Shown here piece after piece: positions 3,215 to 15,676 of a stretch of DNA of 16,183 nt. The stretch's first letter is position 1. Every line of letters starts with the position of its first letter. Source of the DNA: a virus. The notes under the pieces are model-generated. The model was not told the DNA's origin, did not search any database, and saw only the letters and a program-made list of their open reading frames with translations. The DNA is taken from the UHGV virus genome UHGV-0286155; one strand, written 5' to 3'. A program made the translations under genes and the position numbers.

Positions 3215-3537
3215 ACTTTCAGCCCCCTCTCATGTAACCAGTGGGCTGCACGCAGCCTGCCGTTTTCCTCACCGGCAAGCAGTGCGCGGATAATCCCGAC
3301 CGCCTCGCTGTCGTCGTCCTTCACCGCGGTATGAAGCGTTATCCCCCGGGCCACGCCACGCTTTATCGTGATGACGCCTTTTTTCTCCAGTGCGCGAAGA
3401 TGCTCTACCGCTGCATTCACTGAACGGTATCCCAGCATGGTTGCCACCTCCTGATTGGTTGGCGGGAAGCCACGTTCTTGCTGGTAAGAAATCAGCATAT
3501 CCAGCACCTGCTGCTGGCATTGAGTTAACGTCGTCAT
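3211..3537 (-). CDS. LexA N-terminal DNA-binding-domain-like protein lacking the S24 peptidase domain
   Basis: The first ~70 aa align from memory with the LexA winged-helix domain: QQQVLDMLISYQQERGFPPTNQEVATMLGYRSVNAAVEHLRALEKKGVI against LexA [49 protein letters not shown]. No Ala-Gly/Ser-Lys protease module follows. ATGA overlaps with both neighbours. Confidence 0.55.
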   Translation of the reverse strand: MTTLTQCQQQVLDMLISYQQERGFPPTNQEVATMLGYRSVNAAVEHLRALEKKGVITIKRGVARGITLHTAVKDDDSEAVGIIRALLAGEENGRLRAAHWLHERGLKV

Positions 3538-4187
3538 GCCGCCATCTCCCTGACCAGTTTTTCCGCCTGCTGGCGAACCTGCACCAGAAACGCCTCACCA
3601 CATGCCTCAAGTTCATCGCGCCCGATGTAGCTGATTGCCGGTCCCTTCCAGGTCTTGTCGAAAACAGCAATAGCACCAGCGAAGAAAGCACCTGTCGGCA
3701 CCTGCTTCTCGTCCTTCGGGATAAACCAGGCAGGCAGTTCAAAACCAATACGCCCGCGAATAAAAGCAATATGGTCCGCATCTTCCGGCCACCACACTTC
3801 ACTGGTGGCAGCTTTGATCAGGAAAACATAGCGCCCGCCTTTATCACGCATGGCACTGGCATGTTTCATGATGTAACGCATGCCGGTGATGTATTGCCCC
3901 TCATGCTGACTGGCGCGGCTGTATGGGGGATTACCAAAGGCAGCACCTTTAAGCTCCGCAAGGCGTTCTGACCAGTCATGCGCCAGCGCGTTGTCTTCCG
4001 CCGTGTAATACGCGGCACATTTGGCGTTATCACCGTCAGTGAACAGATCCAGAACAAACGGGCCAAACAGGGTGTTAATTCCCCAGAAAATGTTGTCCGG
4101 CGTGCGCCACTGATCGCCCACTTCCTTCAGTTCATGGGCTGGTTTGTTCCGCAGTTCCACCAGTGCCTGACAATATTTATTACTCAT
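3534..4187 (-). CDS. phage-type DNA N6-adenine methyltransferase (Dam-like)
   Basis: NPPY catalytic motif (AAFGNPPYSRA) and overall phage Dam-family resemblance. The preferred start is the ATG at 4187 (MSNKYCQ...), which overlaps the upstream stop as TAATG; the track start at 4220 would overlap the upstream gene by 34 nt. Confidence 0.7.
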   Translation of the reverse strand: MSNKYCQALVELRNKPAHELKEVGDQWRTPDNIFWGINTLFGPFVLDLFTDGDNAKCAAYYTAEDNALAHDWSERLAELKGAAFGNPPYSRASQHEGQYITGMRYIMKHASAMRDKGGRYVFLIKAATSEVWWPEDADHIAFIRGRIGFELPAWFIPKDEKQVPTGAFFAGAIAVFDKTWKGPAISYIGRDELEACGEAFLVQVRQQAEKLVREMAA

Positions 4188-4675
4188 TAAGCCCCCACGT
4201 AATTCCCTGACAGATACCACTCTTCACCCGATGCAGCGCGCTTGCTGCTTTTCTGTAAGCACTGCTCACGACGCGCCAGAAAATTGTTTCGTTCTGGCTG
4301 GGAGTGGCTTTCACGGAATACCGCCATCCACACGGTTGCAGCACGACGGTATAAGCCCCTGGACTCCAGTTCTTCAGCCTGGCGGGTCAGGCACAAAATC
4401 ACCCGTGGATCGTTAGTGCCGACATAGAAATTGCGCACAGGTCTGGTTTCTCGAACTGGTTGTGGTTCCGGTTCCTGCGCTCTCTCAGTCAGGCGCGGGA
4501 AATGTCTGCGTGTATCTCCTTCACAACGGTGAGCCACACGCCCACTCTGACGTAACTTGCTTGCTGACTGCAGAACGCGCTGCCGTGAGTAACCTGCAAA
4601 AGCATCCGCAATGTCTCCGGAAGTACATCCCGGATGGGCTTCAATGAATTTCTGAACTTCATTCAAAAGACTCAT
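4187..4675 (-). CDS. hypothetical protein with PerC/Pch-like C-terminal motif
   Basis: The C-terminal AEELESRGLYRRAATVWMAV resembles, from memory, the AE-LE--G-(W/Y)RRAA--W signature of PerC/Pch activators. The ATG at 4675 has an AGGGGG RBS; the track start at 4681 is a GTG. Confidence 0.4.
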   Translation of the reverse strand: MSLLNEVQKFIEAHPGCTSGDIADAFAGYSRQRVLQSASKLRQSGRVAHRCEGDTRRHFPRLTERAQEPEPQPVRETRPVRNFYVGTNDPRVILCLTRQAEELESRGLYRRAATVWMAVFRESHSQPERNNFLARREQCLQKSSKRAASGEEWYLSGNYVGA

Positions 4676-4677
4676 GA

Positions 4678-5619
4678 TCACCCCCTGAATCCTGCCGGGA
4701 TCTGGCTGTAGTCCACGTTGTCGTAACTGGATTTGAAGTACGGGTCTTCGCGTTTTTCGGTGTACGTGCTGACGGACGGTGATAAGCGCAGGGAAAGCTC
4801 ATCCCATTTTTCCCGCAACTTCGACGGGCTGAGCACGTTACGGCACCAGAACGGATCGCGGCTGACGCGGCTGTACATCTCGCAGATTTGTTTGTGAGTA
4901 CGACCATCCTGCACACACATCAGGCGAATTTCGTTTGCCCAGGCTGTCCAGTTCGGTTCTTTGGGACGAACCACCTCGCCGTCACATTCGGCGGCTTGCT
5001 CGTACAGGGCGATGATTTTTTTCCAGAGCCACTGTGCGCAGGTCAAATCATCCTGCGTTCCCCACTGGCGCTTTTTAGGGCTGAATACAACCGCATCAGG
5101 ATGGCGAGTTAAAAAATCCTGTTCATCCGTCTGCGTGTCCGGTTGCGAAGCGTCCGGACGAGAAGGTTTTTTATCTGACGGATCATGTTTTGATTTTACT
5201 GACGGATCCCCGCCAGATTCTGACGGGTGAAAACCCGCTTTTTTGCCAGATTTCGACGCATCAAATTTTGACGGGTCAGATTTTGATGCGTCAGATTTTG
5301 ACGGGTCAGAATCTGACAGTTGAGAAAATGCCGCTGCCTGAAGCTTCGCAACGTTAAGCTGATAAACATTCGACGCATTGCGGTTACCCTGGCGACGCGC
5401 CTTACGCGTTAACCAGCCTTCTGCTTCCAGCCGTGCGATAGCCGTCCTGACGGTACTCATCCCCGCGCCAATCTGACGGGCAATAGTTTCAATTGATGGC
5501 CAGCACACACCTTCGTCATTACTGAAATCAGCCAGGCGGGCCATAATTGCCACGCTGGATAATTTCATGCCTGATGCAGCGCAACCATCCCATACATAGC
5601 CGGTTAATTTAGTGCTCAT
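4678..5619 (-). CDS. replication initiator, lambda O-like architecture (N-terminal HTH, iteron-encoded linker)
   Basis: N-terminal HTH-type domain (WPSIETIARQIGAGMSTVRTAIARLEAEGWL), then a low-complexity linker SDSDPSKSDASKSDPSKFDASKSGKK encoded by the tandem DNA repeats at 5214-5321, then a C-terminal domain. It sits where lambda O sits, downstream of cro and the CII-position gene. GAGGT RBS before the ATG at 5619. Confidence 0.6.
   Translation of the reverse strand: MSTKLTGYVWDGCAASGMKLSSVAIMARLADFSNDEGVCWPSIETIARQIGAGMSTVRTAIARLEAEGWLTRKARRQGNRNASNVYQLNVAKLQAAAFSQLSDSDPSKSDASKSDPSKFDASKSGKKAGFHPSESGGDPSVKSKHDPSDKKPSRPDASQPDTQTDEQDFLTRHPDAVVFSPKKRQWGTQDDLTCAQWLWKKIIALYEQAAECDGEVVRPKEPNWTAWANEIRLMCVQDGRTHKQICEMYSRVSRDPFWCRNVLSPSKLREKWDELSLRLSPSVSTYTEKREDPYFKSSYDNVDYSQIPAGFRG
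5214..5321. repeat. iteron array, candidate replication origin inside the initiator gene
   Basis: Five tandem 15-bp units at 5247-5321 (CAGATTTCGACGCAT, CAAATTTTGACGGGT, CAGATTTTGATGCGT, CAGATTTTGACGGGT, CAGAATCTGACAGTT) plus a further copy at 5214-5228 and degenerate copies at about 5170-5207. Each unit has a TGACG..GTCA-type internal dyad. Confidence 0.55.
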
Positions 5620-5628
5620 GACCGACCT

Positions 5629-5967
5629 CTATTTCCCTGAATTTACGACGAAACTGTTCGAGCGGGCTGAAGCACTCATGCTCATAGCCTTCGCGGAGGT
5701 AGATAACTCGTTGTGTTTCCGGCTCCCAACGAATGACTCTGACGGGCACTCCGTAGTGATCTTTGAACCAGCGGTTAACTTGTCGCAAAGGACTGTCTCC
5801 TTCTGCCGGTTGAAATCACCCACAGCCCACTCAGCAAAGCTGTGGGTTACAATTTCCCTGTCACCTGGTACATTAACTGCATAGCAATACTCCACCTTCG
5901 CTTTTCCACCCGGTACAGGAAGCGCAATCAGTTGCGAGCGACGGTAGTGTGTTGTTAAACTGTTCAT
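5629..5967 (-). CDS. hypothetical protein
   Basis: 112-aa ORF in the operon orientation. Its ATG overlaps the upstream stop as ATGA and it ends 10 nt before the initiator gene's RBS. No family recognised. A plus-strand 90-aa ORF (5612..5884, GTG start) overlaps it and cannot be excluded. Confidence 0.35.
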
Positions 5968-6572
5968 GCGTTAGTTTCTCCACAGTCACGACACGCCACG
6001 GCGCCCGGAGCTGCACACTCGCGGGCGTCATTACTTTCTGAAATGCAAAAGATTTTGTAGACCAGTGCTGCATGCTCCTGCAGCTTCGAAATTGAGAGAT
6101 ACAGCTCGTCGTTAATTGCTGTCTTCTCATGCGGTTCCACCACACCGTCTTCGATTGCCGAACGAATCTGTCTGGAATAACTGCCAATCTGTTCAATGAC
6201 TTCCAGCAGGCGCTGGTTAATATCGGCGTTGTCCACATCCTCGACGTCAGGAAGAGACACAAAGACGCCATTTGCAGACTGCGCCACAGCGTCAGCAATG
6301 AAGTGAGTTCCACCAGCACGTTGCAAAATCATTGCCCATCCCAGCGGGAAAATCTGATCGCCATCGGCACGAAGGCGGTTAAATAATGCGTTTTCTGTTA
6401 CATCCAGCCAGTCAGCTGCTTCAGCGTAACCACCCGGCAACGCTGCGATAGTTTTTCTGACAGCTTTCACGTACCACTCAGGCTGTTTTTCTACTTTCCA
6501 GTGATGCTTACCCACGGTTAGCCTCATCGTTCTGTGGTTTCTGTTAATCGATTTATCCATTAGATTTTTCAT
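5964..6572 (-). CDS. CII-position regulatory protein (putative)
   Basis: ORF directly downstream of the cro-like gene. Preferred start is the ATG at 6572 (MKNLMDK...), which slightly overlaps the cro stop; the track start at 6629 would overlap cro by 77 nt. Cys cluster at the C-terminus ([14 protein letters not shown]). Function assigned by synteny only. Confidence 0.4.
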
Positions 6573-6753
6573 AAAGCTCAGGTTTAAATGGCAACCGTCC
6601 GCAAGTTCTATATGCAGCTTCTGCTGCACGTCCTTTTGGAATTAACTGGCCCGGACGGTTTCGCCACTGATAAACGGCTTCAGTTGTTATGCCGAAAAAA
6701 GCAGCAACTTTCTCAATACTGCCGAAGTAGCTTTCGATATCGTCAGTTGTCAT
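6553..6753 (-). CDS. Cro-like HTH repressor (YdaS/Cro family)
   Basis: 66 aa. HTH segment VAAFFGITTEAVYQWRN..IPKGRAAE. Divergent from the CI-like gene across a 97-bp operator region. GGAGGG RBS. Confidence 0.6.
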   Translation of the reverse strand: MTTDDIESYFGSIEKVAAFFGITTEAVYQWRNRPGQLIPKGRAAEAAYRTCGRLPFKPELYEKSNG

Positions 6754-6850
6754 ACGCCCTCCAAGCTAAGTTTTATTAGATGCTAATTACAAATCTATCT
6801 TTGGTCAATAAAAACTAAGATTACTTAGCAATTCAAGAAATGGTGCTCCT
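6754..6850. promoter_or_regulatory. divergent immunity promoter/operator region (PR/PRM-like)
   Basis: Intergenic region between the cro-like and cI-like genes. Palindromes ATTAGATGCTAAT (6775-6787) and CTAAGATTACTTAG (6815-6828). On the minus strand TTGACC-N17-TAGCAT is a candidate PR, with the first palindrome overlapping its -10. Confidence 0.5.
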
Positions 6851-7477
6851 ATGGAAACGGTTGGTCAGCGTATAAAAGCTCTGAGAAGAGTTACCGGAAC
6901 GTCCCAGAAAGAATTGGGTAAATTTTGTGGAGTAAGCGACGTTGCTGTGGGGTACTGGGAGAAAGACATCAATACCCCTGGTGGGGAGGCACTTTCGAAA
7001 TTAGCGAAGTTCTTCAATACGTCAATAGATTACATTCTTTATGGTGCTGAGTTTGAAGGCAAACTCGTCACAAACATGCGCAGAGTTCCTGTAATATCGT
7101 GGGTTCAGGCTGGGCAGTTTACTGAGTGCAGGGCAGCAGAAGTGTTTAGTGAAGTGGACAAGTGGGTAGATACATCATTAAAGATTGGTGATAACTCATT
7201 TGCATTAGAGGTTAAAGGTGACTCCATGACTAACCCTAATGGCCTCCCAACAATACCAGAAGGCGCAACAGTGATTGTAGATCCAGATGCAGAACCTCGT
7301 CATGGAAAAATAGTCATCGCTCGACTTGATGGAACAAACGAAGCTACAGTAAAAAAATTAGTCATCGATGGCCCTCAAAAGTTTTTAGTGCCATTAAATC
7401 CTCGGTATCCCAACATCCCTATCAATGGTAATTGCCTTATCATTGGTGTAGTCAAAGGAGTTCAATACGAACTCTAA
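6851..7477 (+). CDS. CI-like prophage repressor (HTH_XRE + S24 LexA-type peptidase domain)
   Basis: N-terminal HTH (QRIKALRRVTGTSQKELGKFCGVSDVAVGYWE), an Ala-Gly candidate autocleavage site (VQAGQF), the Ser motif KGDSMTNP and a downstream Lys (ATVKKLV) typical of the S24 family. Confidence 0.8.
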   Translation: METVGQRIKALRRVTGTSQKELGKFCGVSDVAVGYWEKDINTPGGEALSKLAKFFNTSIDYILYGAEFEGKLVTNMRRVPVISWVQAGQFTECRAAEVFSEVDKWVDTSLKIGDNSFALEVKGDSMTNPNGLPTIPEGATVIVDPDAEPRHGKIVIARLDGTNEATVKKLVIDGPQKFLVPLNPRYPNIPINGNCLIIGVVKGVQYEL

Positions 7478-9993: not shown

Positions 9994-10343
9994 TGGAGCC
10001 ATACAGCCTCACACTCGATGAGGCCTGTCATTTTCTCAAGATATCCAGACCGACTGCCATTAACTGGATACGCACAGGGCGTCTTCAGGCAACACGCAAA
10101 GATCCCACTAAGAATAAATCTCCTTACCTCACAACACGACAAGCCTGCATTGCGGCTCTTCAGTCTCCGCTGCATACTGTCCAGGTGAGCGCGGGTGATG
10201 GCATAACAGAGGAAAGAAAATGTCACTCTTCCGCAGAGGTGAAATATGGTACGCCAGTTTCACATTGCCGAACGGTAAAAGATTTAAACAGTCTCTTGGA
10301 ACAAAGGACAAAAGGCAGGCGACAGAACTCCATGACAAGCTAA
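9993..10343 (+). CDS. xis: excisionase (Xis), P22-like long form
   Basis: Start at the ATG at 9993 (GAGGTG RBS, TAATG overlap with the upstream stop). HTH-like [26 protein letters not shown]. 116 codons. Directly upstream of int, overlapping its 5' end by about 124 nt. Confidence 0.5.
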
Positions 10344-11383
10344 AGGCTGAAGCATGGCGGGTCAGCAAACTTGGTGAAATACCTGATATAACGTTCGAGG
10401 AAGCGTGTGTCAGGTGGCTTGAAGAGAAAGCACATAAAAAATCACTGGACGATGACAAAAGCCGGATCGGATTCTGGCTTCAACATTTCGCAGGAATGCA
10501 ACTAAGAGACATTACTGAATCAAAAATTTATTCAGCAATGCAGAAAATGACGAACCGGCGTCATGAGGAAAACTGGAAACTCAGGGCAGAAGCATGCAGA
10601 AAAAAAGGGAAACCTGTTCCAGAATACACGCCAAAACCAGCGTCCGTTGCAACGAAGGCTACGCATCTTTCATTTATAAAGGCCCTACTAAGAGCCGCAG
10701 AGCGTGAATGGAAAATGCTGGATAAGGCACCAATTATTAAAGTGCCCCAACCAAAGAATAAACGGATCCGCTGGCTGGAGCCCCATGAAGCACAAAGGCT
10801 GATTGATGAATGTCCGGAGCCATTAAAGTCTGTTGTTGAATTTGCACTGGCAACAGGCTTAAGACGCTCGAACATCATCAACCTTGAATGGCAACAAATA
10901 GATATGCAGCGCCGGGTGGCATGGATAAACCCGGAAGAGAGTAAATCAAACCGCGCAATTGGCGTTGCGCTGAATGATACTGCATGTCGCGTATTGAAAA
11001 AACAAATCGGGAATCATCACCGTTGGGTATTTGTGTACAAGGAAAGCTGTACCAAACCAGACGGAACGAAAGCGCCAACAGTCAGGAAGATGCGGTATGA
11101 CGCAAACACAGCCTGGAAAGCGGCGCTGAGACGGGCTGGTATTGATGATTTCAGATTTCACGACTTGAGACACACATGGGCAAGTTGGCTGGTTCAAGCC
11201 GGAGTCCCGTTGTCAGTGTTACAGGAAATGGGAGGCTGGGAGTCTATCGAAATGGTTCGTCGATATGCTCACCTTGCACCTAATCACCTTACCGAACACG
11301 CACGGCAAATAGACTCGATCCTAAACCCATCGGTCCCAAATTTGTCCCAGTCAAAAAATAAGGAAGGTACTAATGATGTGTAA
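10220..11383 (+). CDS. int: tyrosine integrase, lambda/P22 family
   Basis: 387 aa. N-terminal arm-binding domain [27 protein letters not shown]. Catalytic signature residues in GLRRSN, HDLRHT and the Tyr in VRRYAHL. The gene ends 14 nt before the tRNA-Thr 3' segment. Confidence 0.9.
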
Positions 11384-11629: not shown

Positions 11630-12949
11630 ATGGCGCTTTCAAGACAAAAACTAACCTTCGAACGAATTCGAAGATTTACTTTACCTGAAGGGAAAAACCA
11701 AGTTTTCCTTTGGGATACGGACGTAACAAGCTTGGCATGTCGAGCAACTCGTGGAGCAAAAGCCTTTGTATTCCAAAGCCTGTATGCGGGAAAAACCCTT
11801 CGCATGACCATTGGCAACATTAACGATTGGAGGATTGATGATGCGAGGGCCGAAGCCAGGCGACTGCAAACATTAATCGATACTGGGATAGATCCGCGTA
11901 TAGCTAAGGCGGAAAAAATTGCTGAAGCGGAATCACAGCAGGCTGAATCTCGTAAAACGAAGGCAACCTTTTCAAGCGCTTGGGAAGATTATCTTGATGA
12001 ATTGAGAACCGGAATCAGCGCAAAAACTAAACGCCCCTACTCTGCACGCTACATTGCCGATCACGTTAACTTGTCCAGTCGTGGAGGCGAAAGTAAAAAA
12101 AGAGGCCGGGGCTCAACCTCACCTGGGCCACTGGCTAGCCTGCTCGACCGACCATTATCAGAACTAACACCAGAGAACATTGCCGAATGGCTAAGTACAG
12201 AGAGACAAAATCGGCCTACCGTCACTGCTCATGCCTACCGTCTGTTGCGTGCATTCATCAAATGGGCTAATTACCAGAAAAAATATCAGGGAATAATCCA
12301 TGGCGATCTTGCACAAGATCATAACGTGAGAAAAATGGTTCCAATATCAGCGAGCAAAGCGGGAGATTGCTTACAAAAAGAACAGCTCAAAAGCTGGTTC
12401 AGTGCCGTGCGTAGCCTCAATAATCCCATTGCATCAGCCTATCTCCAAGTGCTTTTGCTCACCGGTGCACGGCGTGAAGAAATTTCCTCACTTCGCTGGT
12501 CTGACATAGATTTCAAATGGTCAAGCATGAGAATTAAAGACAAGATCGAAGGCGAGCGAATTATCCCCCTCACTCCCTATGTTTCTTACTTGTTACGCTC
12601 ACTGATGGAGATCCCTAATCGTGGTACAAACGAGGAGAATTGGGTTTTCAGAAGTAACAGCAAAAGTGGCAAAATTATTGAACCGCGTTCAGCACATAAT
12701 AGAGCATTAACTCGCGCGGAGTTACCACATATCAGCTTGCACGGATTGCGCCGTAGTTTTGGGACCCTCGCTGAATGGGTCGAAGTACCAACAGGTATTG
12801 TTGCGCAGATTATGGGCCATAAGCCTAGCGCTCTTGCTGAAAAGCACTATCGCCGCCGTCCATTAGATTTGCTAAGAAAATGGCATGAAAAAGTTGAATT
12901 ATGGATCTTAGAAGAAGCAAAAATAAAAAACAACGTTGATAAGCGTTGA
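11630..12949 (+). CDS. tyrosine integrase, P4/CP4-type
   Basis: 439 aa. The N-terminal pattern (LTFERIRRFTLPEGKNQVFLWDTDVTSLACR...GIDPR) is typical of P4-like integrases. Catalytic motifs LTGARREE, HGLRRSFGT and the Tyr in AEKHYRR. Begins about 180 nt from the tRNA fragment. Confidence 0.85.
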   Translation: MALSRQKLTFERIRRFTLPEGKNQVFLWDTDVTSLACRATRGAKAFVFQSLYAGKTLRMTIGNINDWRIDDARAEARRLQTLIDTGIDPRIAKAEKIAEAESQQAESRKTKATFSSAWEDYLDELRTGISAKTKRPYSARYIADHVNLSSRGGESKKRGRGSTSPGPLASLLDRPLSELTPENIAEWLSTERQNRPTVTAHAYRLLRAFIKWANYQKKYQGIIHGDLAQDHNVRKMVPISASKAGDCLQKEQLKSWFSAVRSLNNPIASAYLQVLLLTGARREEISSLRWSDIDFKWSSMRIKDKIEGERIIPLTPYVSYLLRSLMEIPNRGTNEENWVFRSNSKSGKIIEPRSAHNRALTRAELPHISLHGLRRSFGTLAEWVEVPTGIVAQIMGHKPSALAEKHYRRRPLDLLRKWHEKVELWILEEAKIKNNVDKR

Positions 12950-15055: not shown

Positions 15056-15676
15056 ATGGAATTATATCATGGTTCCCATGGTGAGCATGTGCTCGCCTAT
15101 AAAAAACATATTGAACGAGTCGTCAATGATGCTATCAGTGAATTCCCTAGAACGATGGCGTTACGTGTTGATGTTCATTATCCACCCATTTTAGACAGAG
15201 GTGACACTGTTTGCTGTTTTCCTAATCTAGAGCCTGGTGCTATATCCCGTTTCCGTAATGCGTTAAATGCAATGCTGGAGGCCAATGAGAAAGCCAGAGC
15301 AGCTAACGGTAAACGAATTTATCCAAACCGTGTTCGTCACGTTTGGGTACGTGAGTTTTCCGAAGAGGGAAAATGCCACTTTCATCTTGGTCTTTTTTTT
15401 AATAAAGATGCTTATTACCATTTGGGTGATTATGAGACTGAAAGCAATTTACGAATGATGATTGTAAGAGCATGGTATAGCGCACTGGGATTGGAACTGG
15501 ATGATTATCCGGGATTGGTTCACTACCCTGAAAATTGTCGTTATATATTAGACGTCAATGATTTTAACTTTGAAGGAGAATACAATAAATTACTGAATCG
15601 TCTCGACTACCTAGCTAAACTCGATACAAAAGCTTATGGAGATGGCGACCGTAGCTTCGGCTGCAGTCGCGGGTAA
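15056..15676 (+). CDS. YagK/YfjJ-family protein (Inovirus Gp2-like)
   Basis: 206 aa. Resembles from memory the YagK/YfjJ proteins of CP4-type prophage islands. Contains HFHLGLFF, an H-hydrophobic-H motif. Confidence 0.6.
   Translation: MELYHGSHGEHVLAYKKHIERVVNDAISEFPRTMALRVDVHYPPILDRGDTVCCFPNLEPGAISRFRNALNAMLEANEKARAANGKRIYPNRVRHVWVREFSEEGKCHFHLGLFFNKDAYYHLGDYETESNLRMMIVRAWYSALGLELDDYPGLVHYPENCRYILDVNDFNFEGEYNKLLNRLDYLAKLDTKAYGDGDRSFGCSRG

Follow-up and report, generated by a model that had tools for sequence, protein, structure and literature searches.

Initiator gene and iteron array

The 16,183-nucleotide stretch of viral DNA analysed here (UHGV virus genome UHGV-0286155; hereafter the window) contains a lambdoid early region in which an O-like replication initiator gene encloses an array of short palindromic repeats (iterons). 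The genes cI (6851–7477, plus strand), cro (6553–6753, minus strand), a cII-like gene (5964–6629, minus strand) and a gene for a DUF4222 protein precede O, which is followed by genes for a PerC-family YfdN-like protein, Dam, a LexA-DBD protein, RusA, a KilA-N protein, a DUF968 protein and Q. An earlier note, made from the letters of this DNA and its reading frames, had described six or more 15-bp direct repeats with internal dyad symmetry inside the O-like gene, encoding the Asp/Ser/Lys-rich linker between its domains, in the arrangement of ori-lambda within gene O. The gene and its parts are as follows.

4678–5619, minus strand: O-like replication initiator gene, 313 amino acids (open reading frame list and translation, Pfam, phrog_391, BLASTP, AlphaFold2 [AF2])
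5326–5619, minus strand: N-terminal winged-helix domain, residues 1–98, putative iteron binder (HTH_36 match)
5306–5316, minus strand: iteron 1 (I1), TCAGATTCTGA
5291–5301, minus strand: iteron 2 (I2), TCAAAATCTGA
5276–5286, minus strand: iteron 3 (I3), TCAAAATCTGA
5261–5271, minus strand: iteron 4 (I4), TCAAAATTTGA
5246–5256, minus strand: iteron 5 (I5), degenerate, TCGAAATCTGG
5213–5223, minus strand: iteron 6 (I6), isolated, 33 bp from I5, within the most conserved stretch of the cassette, TCAGAATCTGG
5166–5212, minus strand: conserved block and candidate unwinding region, with two GATCCGTCAG repeats and GATC at 5181 and 5205
4789–5073, minus strand: lambda-O-type C-terminal domain, residues 183–277 (BLASTP, tblastn, confident AF2 helical domain)
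4681–4773, minus strand: disordered C-terminal tail, residues 283–313, ending ...YDNVDYSQIPAGFRG; candidate host-factor docking peptide

Tandem Repeats Finder, the check that the earlier note had proposed, recovers an array of 15-bp period at 5247–5310 (4.3 copies, 81 per cent matches) together with a 30-bp super-period, and a repeat search extends the family to 5211–5326. With up to three mismatches allowed, the 15-mer consensus CAGATTTTGACGGGT has six matches in the 16-kb window, every one of them in 5214–5315, where 0.43 are expected and none of 200 shuffles reached six; the shorter motif TCTGACGGRTC clusters at 5174–5307 and nowhere else in the window. On the coding strand, which is the minus strand, each unit consists of an 11-bp palindrome, TCAGA(W)TCTGA, with a variable 4-bp spacer after it. 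The six copies span 5213–5316, and the description of the repeats thus stands with one refinement: I1–I5 are contiguous at exact 15-bp phasing, and I6 is offset by 33 bp. Two more half-site-like copies, TCTGACGGATC and ACTGACGGATC, lie at 5174–5184 and 5198–5208. The array occupies nucleotides 303–406 of the gene and is translated as SDSDPSKSDASKSDPSKFDASKSGKK, which is the disordered Ser/Lys/Asp linker of the O-like protein, as the earlier note had it. Between iterons 5 and 6, antisense to O, a small terminator-like hairpin CGGGTGAAAACCCG with a T-run is present on the plus strand (5224–5237); we take it to be a chance feature because it is not conserved among relatives.

The initiator consists, in order, of an N-terminal winged helix (HTH_36), a disordered linker, a lambda-O-type C-domain and a disordered tail. 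It matches phrog_391 ('replication initiation O-like') over its full length (residues 1–313; 1.2e-135), and its residues 183–277 align with residues 187–270 of lambda O (BLASTP, 7e-26 overall), the same domain being matched in lambda, 21 and 933W at about 40 per cent identity (tblastn). In lambda O, the C-terminal domain is the part that contacts P. The N-domain is of another kind: residues 23–70 match Pfam HTH_36 above the cut-off (4e-11), and the domain has no match to PF04492 (Phage_rep_O), which lambda O matches at 6e-36. The O-like assignment of the earlier note holds, with the correction that the initiator is a chimera of a putative origin-binding domain of non-lambda type and a lambda-type C-domain. 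Within the putative recognition helix STVRTAIARLE, residues S55–A60 are invariant in five aligned relatives (60–87 per cent identical). A sequence search of the PDB returned only weak MarR matches, and a match to RP-C is also weak (E 0.005, below the Pfam cut-off). In the AF2 model, the predicted local distance difference test score is below 50 for residues 100–164 and 283–313 and 80–90 for residues 190–280.

Database copies of the initiator (P0001–P0114) are mostly labelled 'partial' and end at contig edges, and a homologue search with the C-domain yielded almost exclusively pieces of close relatives cut off at contig ends. Short-read assemblies apparently break inside the initiator gene where prophage modules are present in several copies.

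DNA-level constraint and modularity of the cassette

To compare the array among relatives, we gathered 80 related loci, one genome per species, from many Enterobacterales genera (N-domains 61–100 per cent identical), of which 79 were usable, and added annotated phages. Each of the 79 has the palindromic core in its linker, in 4–10 copies at 15-bp phasing. The density of the core is 21.7 per kb in the linker vs 0.44 per kb in 470 kb of flanking DNA, a difference of about 49-fold. In the position matrix, positions 2, 3, 5, 7, 9 and 10 are near-invariant, third codon positions included, and the 4-bp spacer is free. For codon usage, we counted every Ser, Lys and Asp codon of 70 distinct linkers, without selecting for the motif: Ser is encoded by TCA or TCT in 83 per cent of cases, compared with 37 per cent elsewhere in the same genes, and Lys by AAA in 97 per cent, compared with 67 per cent elsewhere. 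Information at third codon positions is 1.0–1.6 bits over the iterons and the block that follows; the N-domain has 0.57 bits, and the DNA immediately beyond the block has 0.2 bits. At third positions the repeats are conserved about two to three times as strongly as the DNA-binding domain. Fixed codon choice, third-position conservation and core density together indicate that the constraint acts on the DNA and not on the protein alone.

Conservation is highest over a stretch at roughly 5166–5233, which extends from iteron 6 through CGGGGATCCGTCAGTAAAATCAAAACATGATCCGTCAGATAAAAAAC. Its two GATCCGTCAG repeats are 24 bp apart, and the GATC sites at 5181–5184 and 5205–5208 are invariant in the five aligned relatives; GATC is unenriched across the window (55 found, 60 expected). 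Third-position information within the 5166–5212 block reaches 1.2–1.6 bits, compared with the 0.57 bits of the N-domain. The AT-richest DNA inside the gene is here (GC content 0.325 over the 40 bp at 5160–5199), as is the gene's least stable 30-mer (5169–5198).

The N-domain, the iterons and the GATC block behave as one cassette, joined among relatives to at least three unrelated C-domains (lambda-O type, Phg_2220_C [PF09524] and phiP27 type), and the genes upstream and downstream of the cassette vary as well. More distant HTH_36 initiators have palindromic repeats of other sequences at the same position in the gene: GTGCA-N5-TGCAC in the mEp460/SfV type, GGGCAG-GAG-CTGCCC in Min27, GTGACA-N3-TGTCAC in Vibrio phage D62 and different palindromic repeats again in ZF40. 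The initiator of HannyBb, which combines another, unclassified N-domain with a lambda-type C-domain, has five 23-bp repeats of its own in the same place. Judged from the sequences compared, iterons in linker-coding DNA are a general arrangement, and iteron sequence tracks the N-domain. This co-inheritance and co-variation lead us to infer that the N-domain binds the iterons.

One relative, locus L093 (2100–2260), has an N-domain that is 64 per cent identical and carries R58K and T59A in the putative recognition helix; its iterons read TCAA-N3-TTGA, at 15-bp phasing. Its block with two copies of GATCCGTCAG is unchanged despite the altered iterons, which suggests that the block may be read by something besides the N-domain.

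Helicase recruitment, C-terminal tail and genomic setting

Four further features of the window bear on the expression of the initiator, on what follows it and on the prophage as a whole.

4187–4681, minus strand: YfdN-like gene, next after O, with a PerC domain at residues 100–151 and a weak MarR-like N-terminal half
3534–4220, minus strand: phage Dam (N6-adenine) methyltransferase gene, two genes downstream of O (Pfam Dam, 1e-45)
6780–6808, minus strand: match to a pR-like promoter ahead of cro, from a consensus scan alone (9 of 12 positions agree, a frequency expected by chance in the region)
10220–11383: integrase gene of the prophage

No helicase, loader or other replication gene besides O is found in the early region of the window from Q to int, and lambda P, phiP27 DnaC and phiP27 DnaB have no tblastn match in the window. 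The statement of the earlier note that the next gene is not a recognizable P or DnaC-type loader proved correct: the gene encodes a PerC-family YfdN-like protein (Pfam PerC, 5e-10; phrog_1324, transcriptional activator, 1e-77), and Dam comes next. We also considered the YfdN-like protein as a cryptic loader and rejected it: the protein belongs with the PerC/MarR-like regulators, and many relatives with the origin cassette lack it, among them Klebsiella phage 1 LV-2017 and Flotzy. Nor do the 66 annotated features of the whole genome of Shigella phage SfII include a helicase, loader, primase or polymerase. Among the related loci, a P homologue is present in two and DnaC, with or without DnaB, in nine (including phiP27 itself, L005); the remaining loci, about 65, are O-only. 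The large downstream reading frames of O-only relatives were examined as hidden helicases and turned out to encode Dam, Dcm, MT-A70, PAPS-reductase, DUF968 and ParB-like proteins. In a 2025 survey of 314 lambdoid phages, which also describes such a module in phage LLS, 34 had only an O homologue; none of these had been studied, and their replication 'is not yet understood' (PMC12315714). Judged by CI and Cro proteins, the same paper places mEp460_4F5 nearest to LLS among known relatives; it does not mention iterons.

The boundary between O and the YfdN-like gene is crowded. The true start of the latter is probably the ATG at 4675. The O stop and the YfdN-like start lie close together in GGATTCAGGGGGTGATCATG (4675–4690), and the Shine-Dalgarno sequence of the next gene lies within the last O codons, which suggests translational coupling of the two genes. 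In many relatives the overlap is ATGA. Further downstream, at least 40 related loci encode a DNA methyltransferase (Dam, Dcm or MT-A70) within one or two genes of O, and a Dam homologue lies no more than 3 kb from O in 40.

The tail of the initiator ends ...DYSQIPAGFRG here, the general form being ...(D/N)YSxIPxGFR(G/S)-COOH, and it was found only where no loader gene follows O. The terminal ...IPxGFR(G/S) is present in 45 of 76 usable relatives, all of them free of loader genes within 3 kb, and in none of the 10 loader-coupled relatives (with P, DnaC or DnaB); Fisher's test gives 4.6e-5 for this anticorrelation, uncorrected for phylogeny. In the other 21 of the 76, a predicted helical extension of about 45 residues takes the place of the tail; this extension, ...F(A)xxxWNxIWK..QR.., is seen on O-only loci L004, L020, L043, L056, L065 and others, on lambda-type and Phg_2220_C-type C-domains alike. 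The Arg codon of the motif switches among AGG, AGA, CGG, CGC and CGT, that is, between the AGR and CGN families, which argues that selection acts on the peptide and is not accounted for by the overlap with the ribosome-binding site of the next gene alone.

The tail is also found on proteins that differ from the initiator elsewhere. It terminates O in HannyBb and in mEp460, where the N- or the C-domain is of another type, and overall it occurs on at least three N-domain types (that of the window, the mEp460/SfV type and the HannyBb type) and on at least three C-domain types (lambda-O, Phg_2220_C and the phiP27-like domain of mEp460/SfV O). Lambda, 21 and 933W, all of which have P, match the C-domain only and not the tail (tblastn), and L080, the sole relative in which a lambda-type C-domain is combined with a P gene, ends ...TDW..G.., like lambda.

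The region is 97.4–98.6 per cent identical to Shigella phages SfII and SfIV and several Escherichia coli phages, and the module is 97–98 per cent identical to that of phages PhiR49_1, PhiR29_1 and mEp460_4F5; SfII, a complete and viable phage, carries it at 97.6 per cent identity. The region occurs in 2732 of 5426 complete E. coli genomes, in up to six copies per genome, and the module, which is of the SfII/CPS-53 type, is found as prophage in many Enterobacterales genera. If the match at 6780–6808 is a promoter, for which the evidence is weak, it would transcribe cro, the cII-like gene, the DUF4222 gene, O and the array. The early-left region of the SfII type (SfII whole genome; 7644–10220 in the window) has no recombination module of the Red, ERF or RecT type, the very condition discussed as 'no Rec module' for phage LLS (PMC12315714). 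Beyond the prophage integrase, a second, P4-type integrase (Arm-DNA-bind_3 + Phage_integrase) and a YagK/YfjJ-family gene are encoded on the plus strand (11630–12949 and 15056–15676), and a CP4-like island seems to abut the prophage end. Sites matching the consensus of integration host factor (IHF) lie at 10518 and 11381, and no tRNA genes were detected in the window.

Interpretation as an origin and alternatives

We consider it likely that a lambdoid prophage of the SfII/CPS-53 type has its replication origin here, within the initiator gene and with the layout of ori-lambda. As in ori-lambda, dyad-symmetric iterons lie within the initiator gene between a (here putative) origin-binding N-domain and a C-domain, the cI/cro/cII context is lambdoid and the C-domains are homologous; a segment that is modestly AT-richer lies on the promoter-distal side and may correspond to the unwinding element of lambda. 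The likeness to ori-lambda that the earlier note had drawn thus extends to position, the annotated iterons of lambda being at nucleotides 349–433 of O and those of the window at 303–406 of the gene. The two systems differ in their parts: lambda has annotated 18-bp sites spaced 20–24 bp start to start, a Phage_rep_O N-domain, a P gene and the C-terminus ...TDWIYGVDL, whereas the window has 11-bp palindromes spaced 15 bp, an HTH_36 N-domain, no P and ...IPxGFRG.

In having a single O homologue and no helicase or loader, the module belongs with the O-only modules of lambdoid phages such as LLS (PMC12315714). Other HTH_36 initiators are accompanied by partner genes. L17 of phiP27 (with DnaC and DnaB), gp14 of ZF40 (with a DnaB-like helicase) and the initiator of Salmonella SF6 (with a primase/helicase) have HTH_36 N-domains and palindromic repeats at the same place in the gene, the iteron core of phiP27 being identical to that of the window; unlike the window module, these phages supply a helicase and/or loader themselves, and their initiators do not end in the IPxGFRG tail. 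Iteron plasmids offer a functional analogy only: there, too, a winged-helix initiator binds iterons next to an AT-rich region, and replication relies on the helicase and loader of the host. Among their Rep proteins, pSC101 RepA, R6K pi and RK2 TrfA recruit host DnaB without a plasmid-encoded loader. Unlike in these plasmids, DnaA boxes and IHF sites are missing around the array and the iterons lie within the initiator's own coding sequence, and no homology to the plasmid Rep proteins was found beyond the weak RP-C match. We found no description of, or experiment on, the origin of this module in the searchable literature; the SfIV genome paper mentions a replication module and neither an origin nor repeats.

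If the element is an origin, initiation may proceed as follows. Dimers of the initiator N-domain would bind the palindromic iterons, five at 15-bp phasing and one isolated. The resulting nucleoprotein complex, together with transcription from the cro-side promoter, would destabilize the GATC-containing AT-rich block (~5166–5212). The C-domain and/or the tail (...IPxGFRG) would then bring in host DnaB, probably as DnaB-DnaC, directly or via another host factor; because the phage encodes no helicase, loader or primase, recruitment of host DnaB would have to fall to one or both of these parts of the initiator. A more specific version of the last step, which we put forward tentatively and regard as less likely than not, is that the tail is a portable docking peptide that captures a host replication protein (DnaB-DnaC or another primosome or replisome component) and replaces the contact between lambda O and P, and that the GATC sites, with a methyltransferase gene nearly always after O, couple origin firing to methylation.

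Several observations weigh against the origin interpretation. No experimental evidence of binding or of origin activity was found in the searchable literature for this or any other O-only module (PMC12315714). The DnaA box (TTWTNCACA) has a single match in the window, fewer than expected and far from the array, and none nearby; of four IHF consensus matches in the window, none is near it. The candidate unwinding element is modest, reaching only the 94th percentile of the window for duplex instability at a GC content of 0.33 over 40 bp. A centre-to-centre spacing of 15 bp places adjacent palindromes on nearly opposite faces of the helix, and lambda and the other relatives examined have spacings of roughly 20–24 bp. 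The bound dyad is itself ambiguous, since it may be TCAGA-N1-TCTGA, within a unit, or TCTGA-N4-TCAGA, between units; the half-sites are 6 bp apart in the first case and 9 bp in the second, and 9 bp is nearer to the half-site spacing of the relatives. The AF2 model of the N-domain is of low confidence, and its best structural match is the N-terminal domain of DnaD, which in DnaD is an oligomerization module and not a DNA-binding one. Finally, the related loci are phylogenetically non-independent, so that P-values and other statistics overstate significance, although the effect sizes are large and consistent.

The alternative that survives best, which we nevertheless judge unlikely, is that the repeats do bind the initiator and serve mainly in regulation (autoregulation, copy-number control by handcuffing, or exclusion of homologous phages), replication starting elsewhere or being primed by recombination or transcription. 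Plasmid iterons are established to have dual roles, and cloned lambda ori iterons are reported to inhibit rep-lambda phages (PMC3349717). With no loader in these phages and no Rec module in SfII, unconventional initiation is conceivable, and the weakness of the AT-rich element would fit it. A mainly regulatory array, however, leaves the adjacent non-iteron block (5166–5212) to be explained, which is under the strongest DNA-level constraint, as would be the case for an unwinding or assembly site; moreover, the window lacks a second cluster of the motif, and the position of the array is that of the proven ori-lambda.

It is less probable still that the repeats are bound by a protein other than the N-domain, be it the product of the cII-like gene, that of the adjacent upstream DUF4222 gene or a host factor. 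Retention of the GATCCGTCAG block in L093, whose iterons differ, would fit such a reading for at least part of the region. The iterons themselves are found with this N-domain in every case, although the C-domain and the genes on either side differ between prophages, and iteron sequence changes with the family or subfamily of the N-domain, which argues for the N-domain as the binder. That the repeats are only a low-complexity protein linker, (S-K-S-D-A/P)n, arisen by slippage and with no role in cis as DNA, is very improbable: the array does encode a pentapeptide repeat in a disordered linker, and its copy number varies among relatives as slippage predicts, but Ser and Lys codons are fixed beyond what the protein needs, third positions are more conserved than those of the folded DNA-binding domain, the units are palindromic, and the unrelated linkers of distant relatives hold palindromic repeats at the same place that encode quite different peptides.

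For a specialist, an origin at this position would be unsurprising in itself. About half of complete E. coli genomes carry the module, as do SfII and SfIV, which convert the serotype of Shigella, and prophages of many Enterobacterales genera, and a delimited candidate origin (~5166–5316) with its minimal cassette provides a concrete substrate for the study of O-only lambdoid replication. The anatomy of the origin and the tail motif add to the existing account of O-only modules (PMC12315714). The IPxGFRG tail as a link to the host helicase machinery is a specific hypothesis, and the natural domain swaps among relatives offer material for the study of origin specificity. Together, the delimitation of the origin and the pattern of tail versus loader make loader-less lambdoid replication directly testable.

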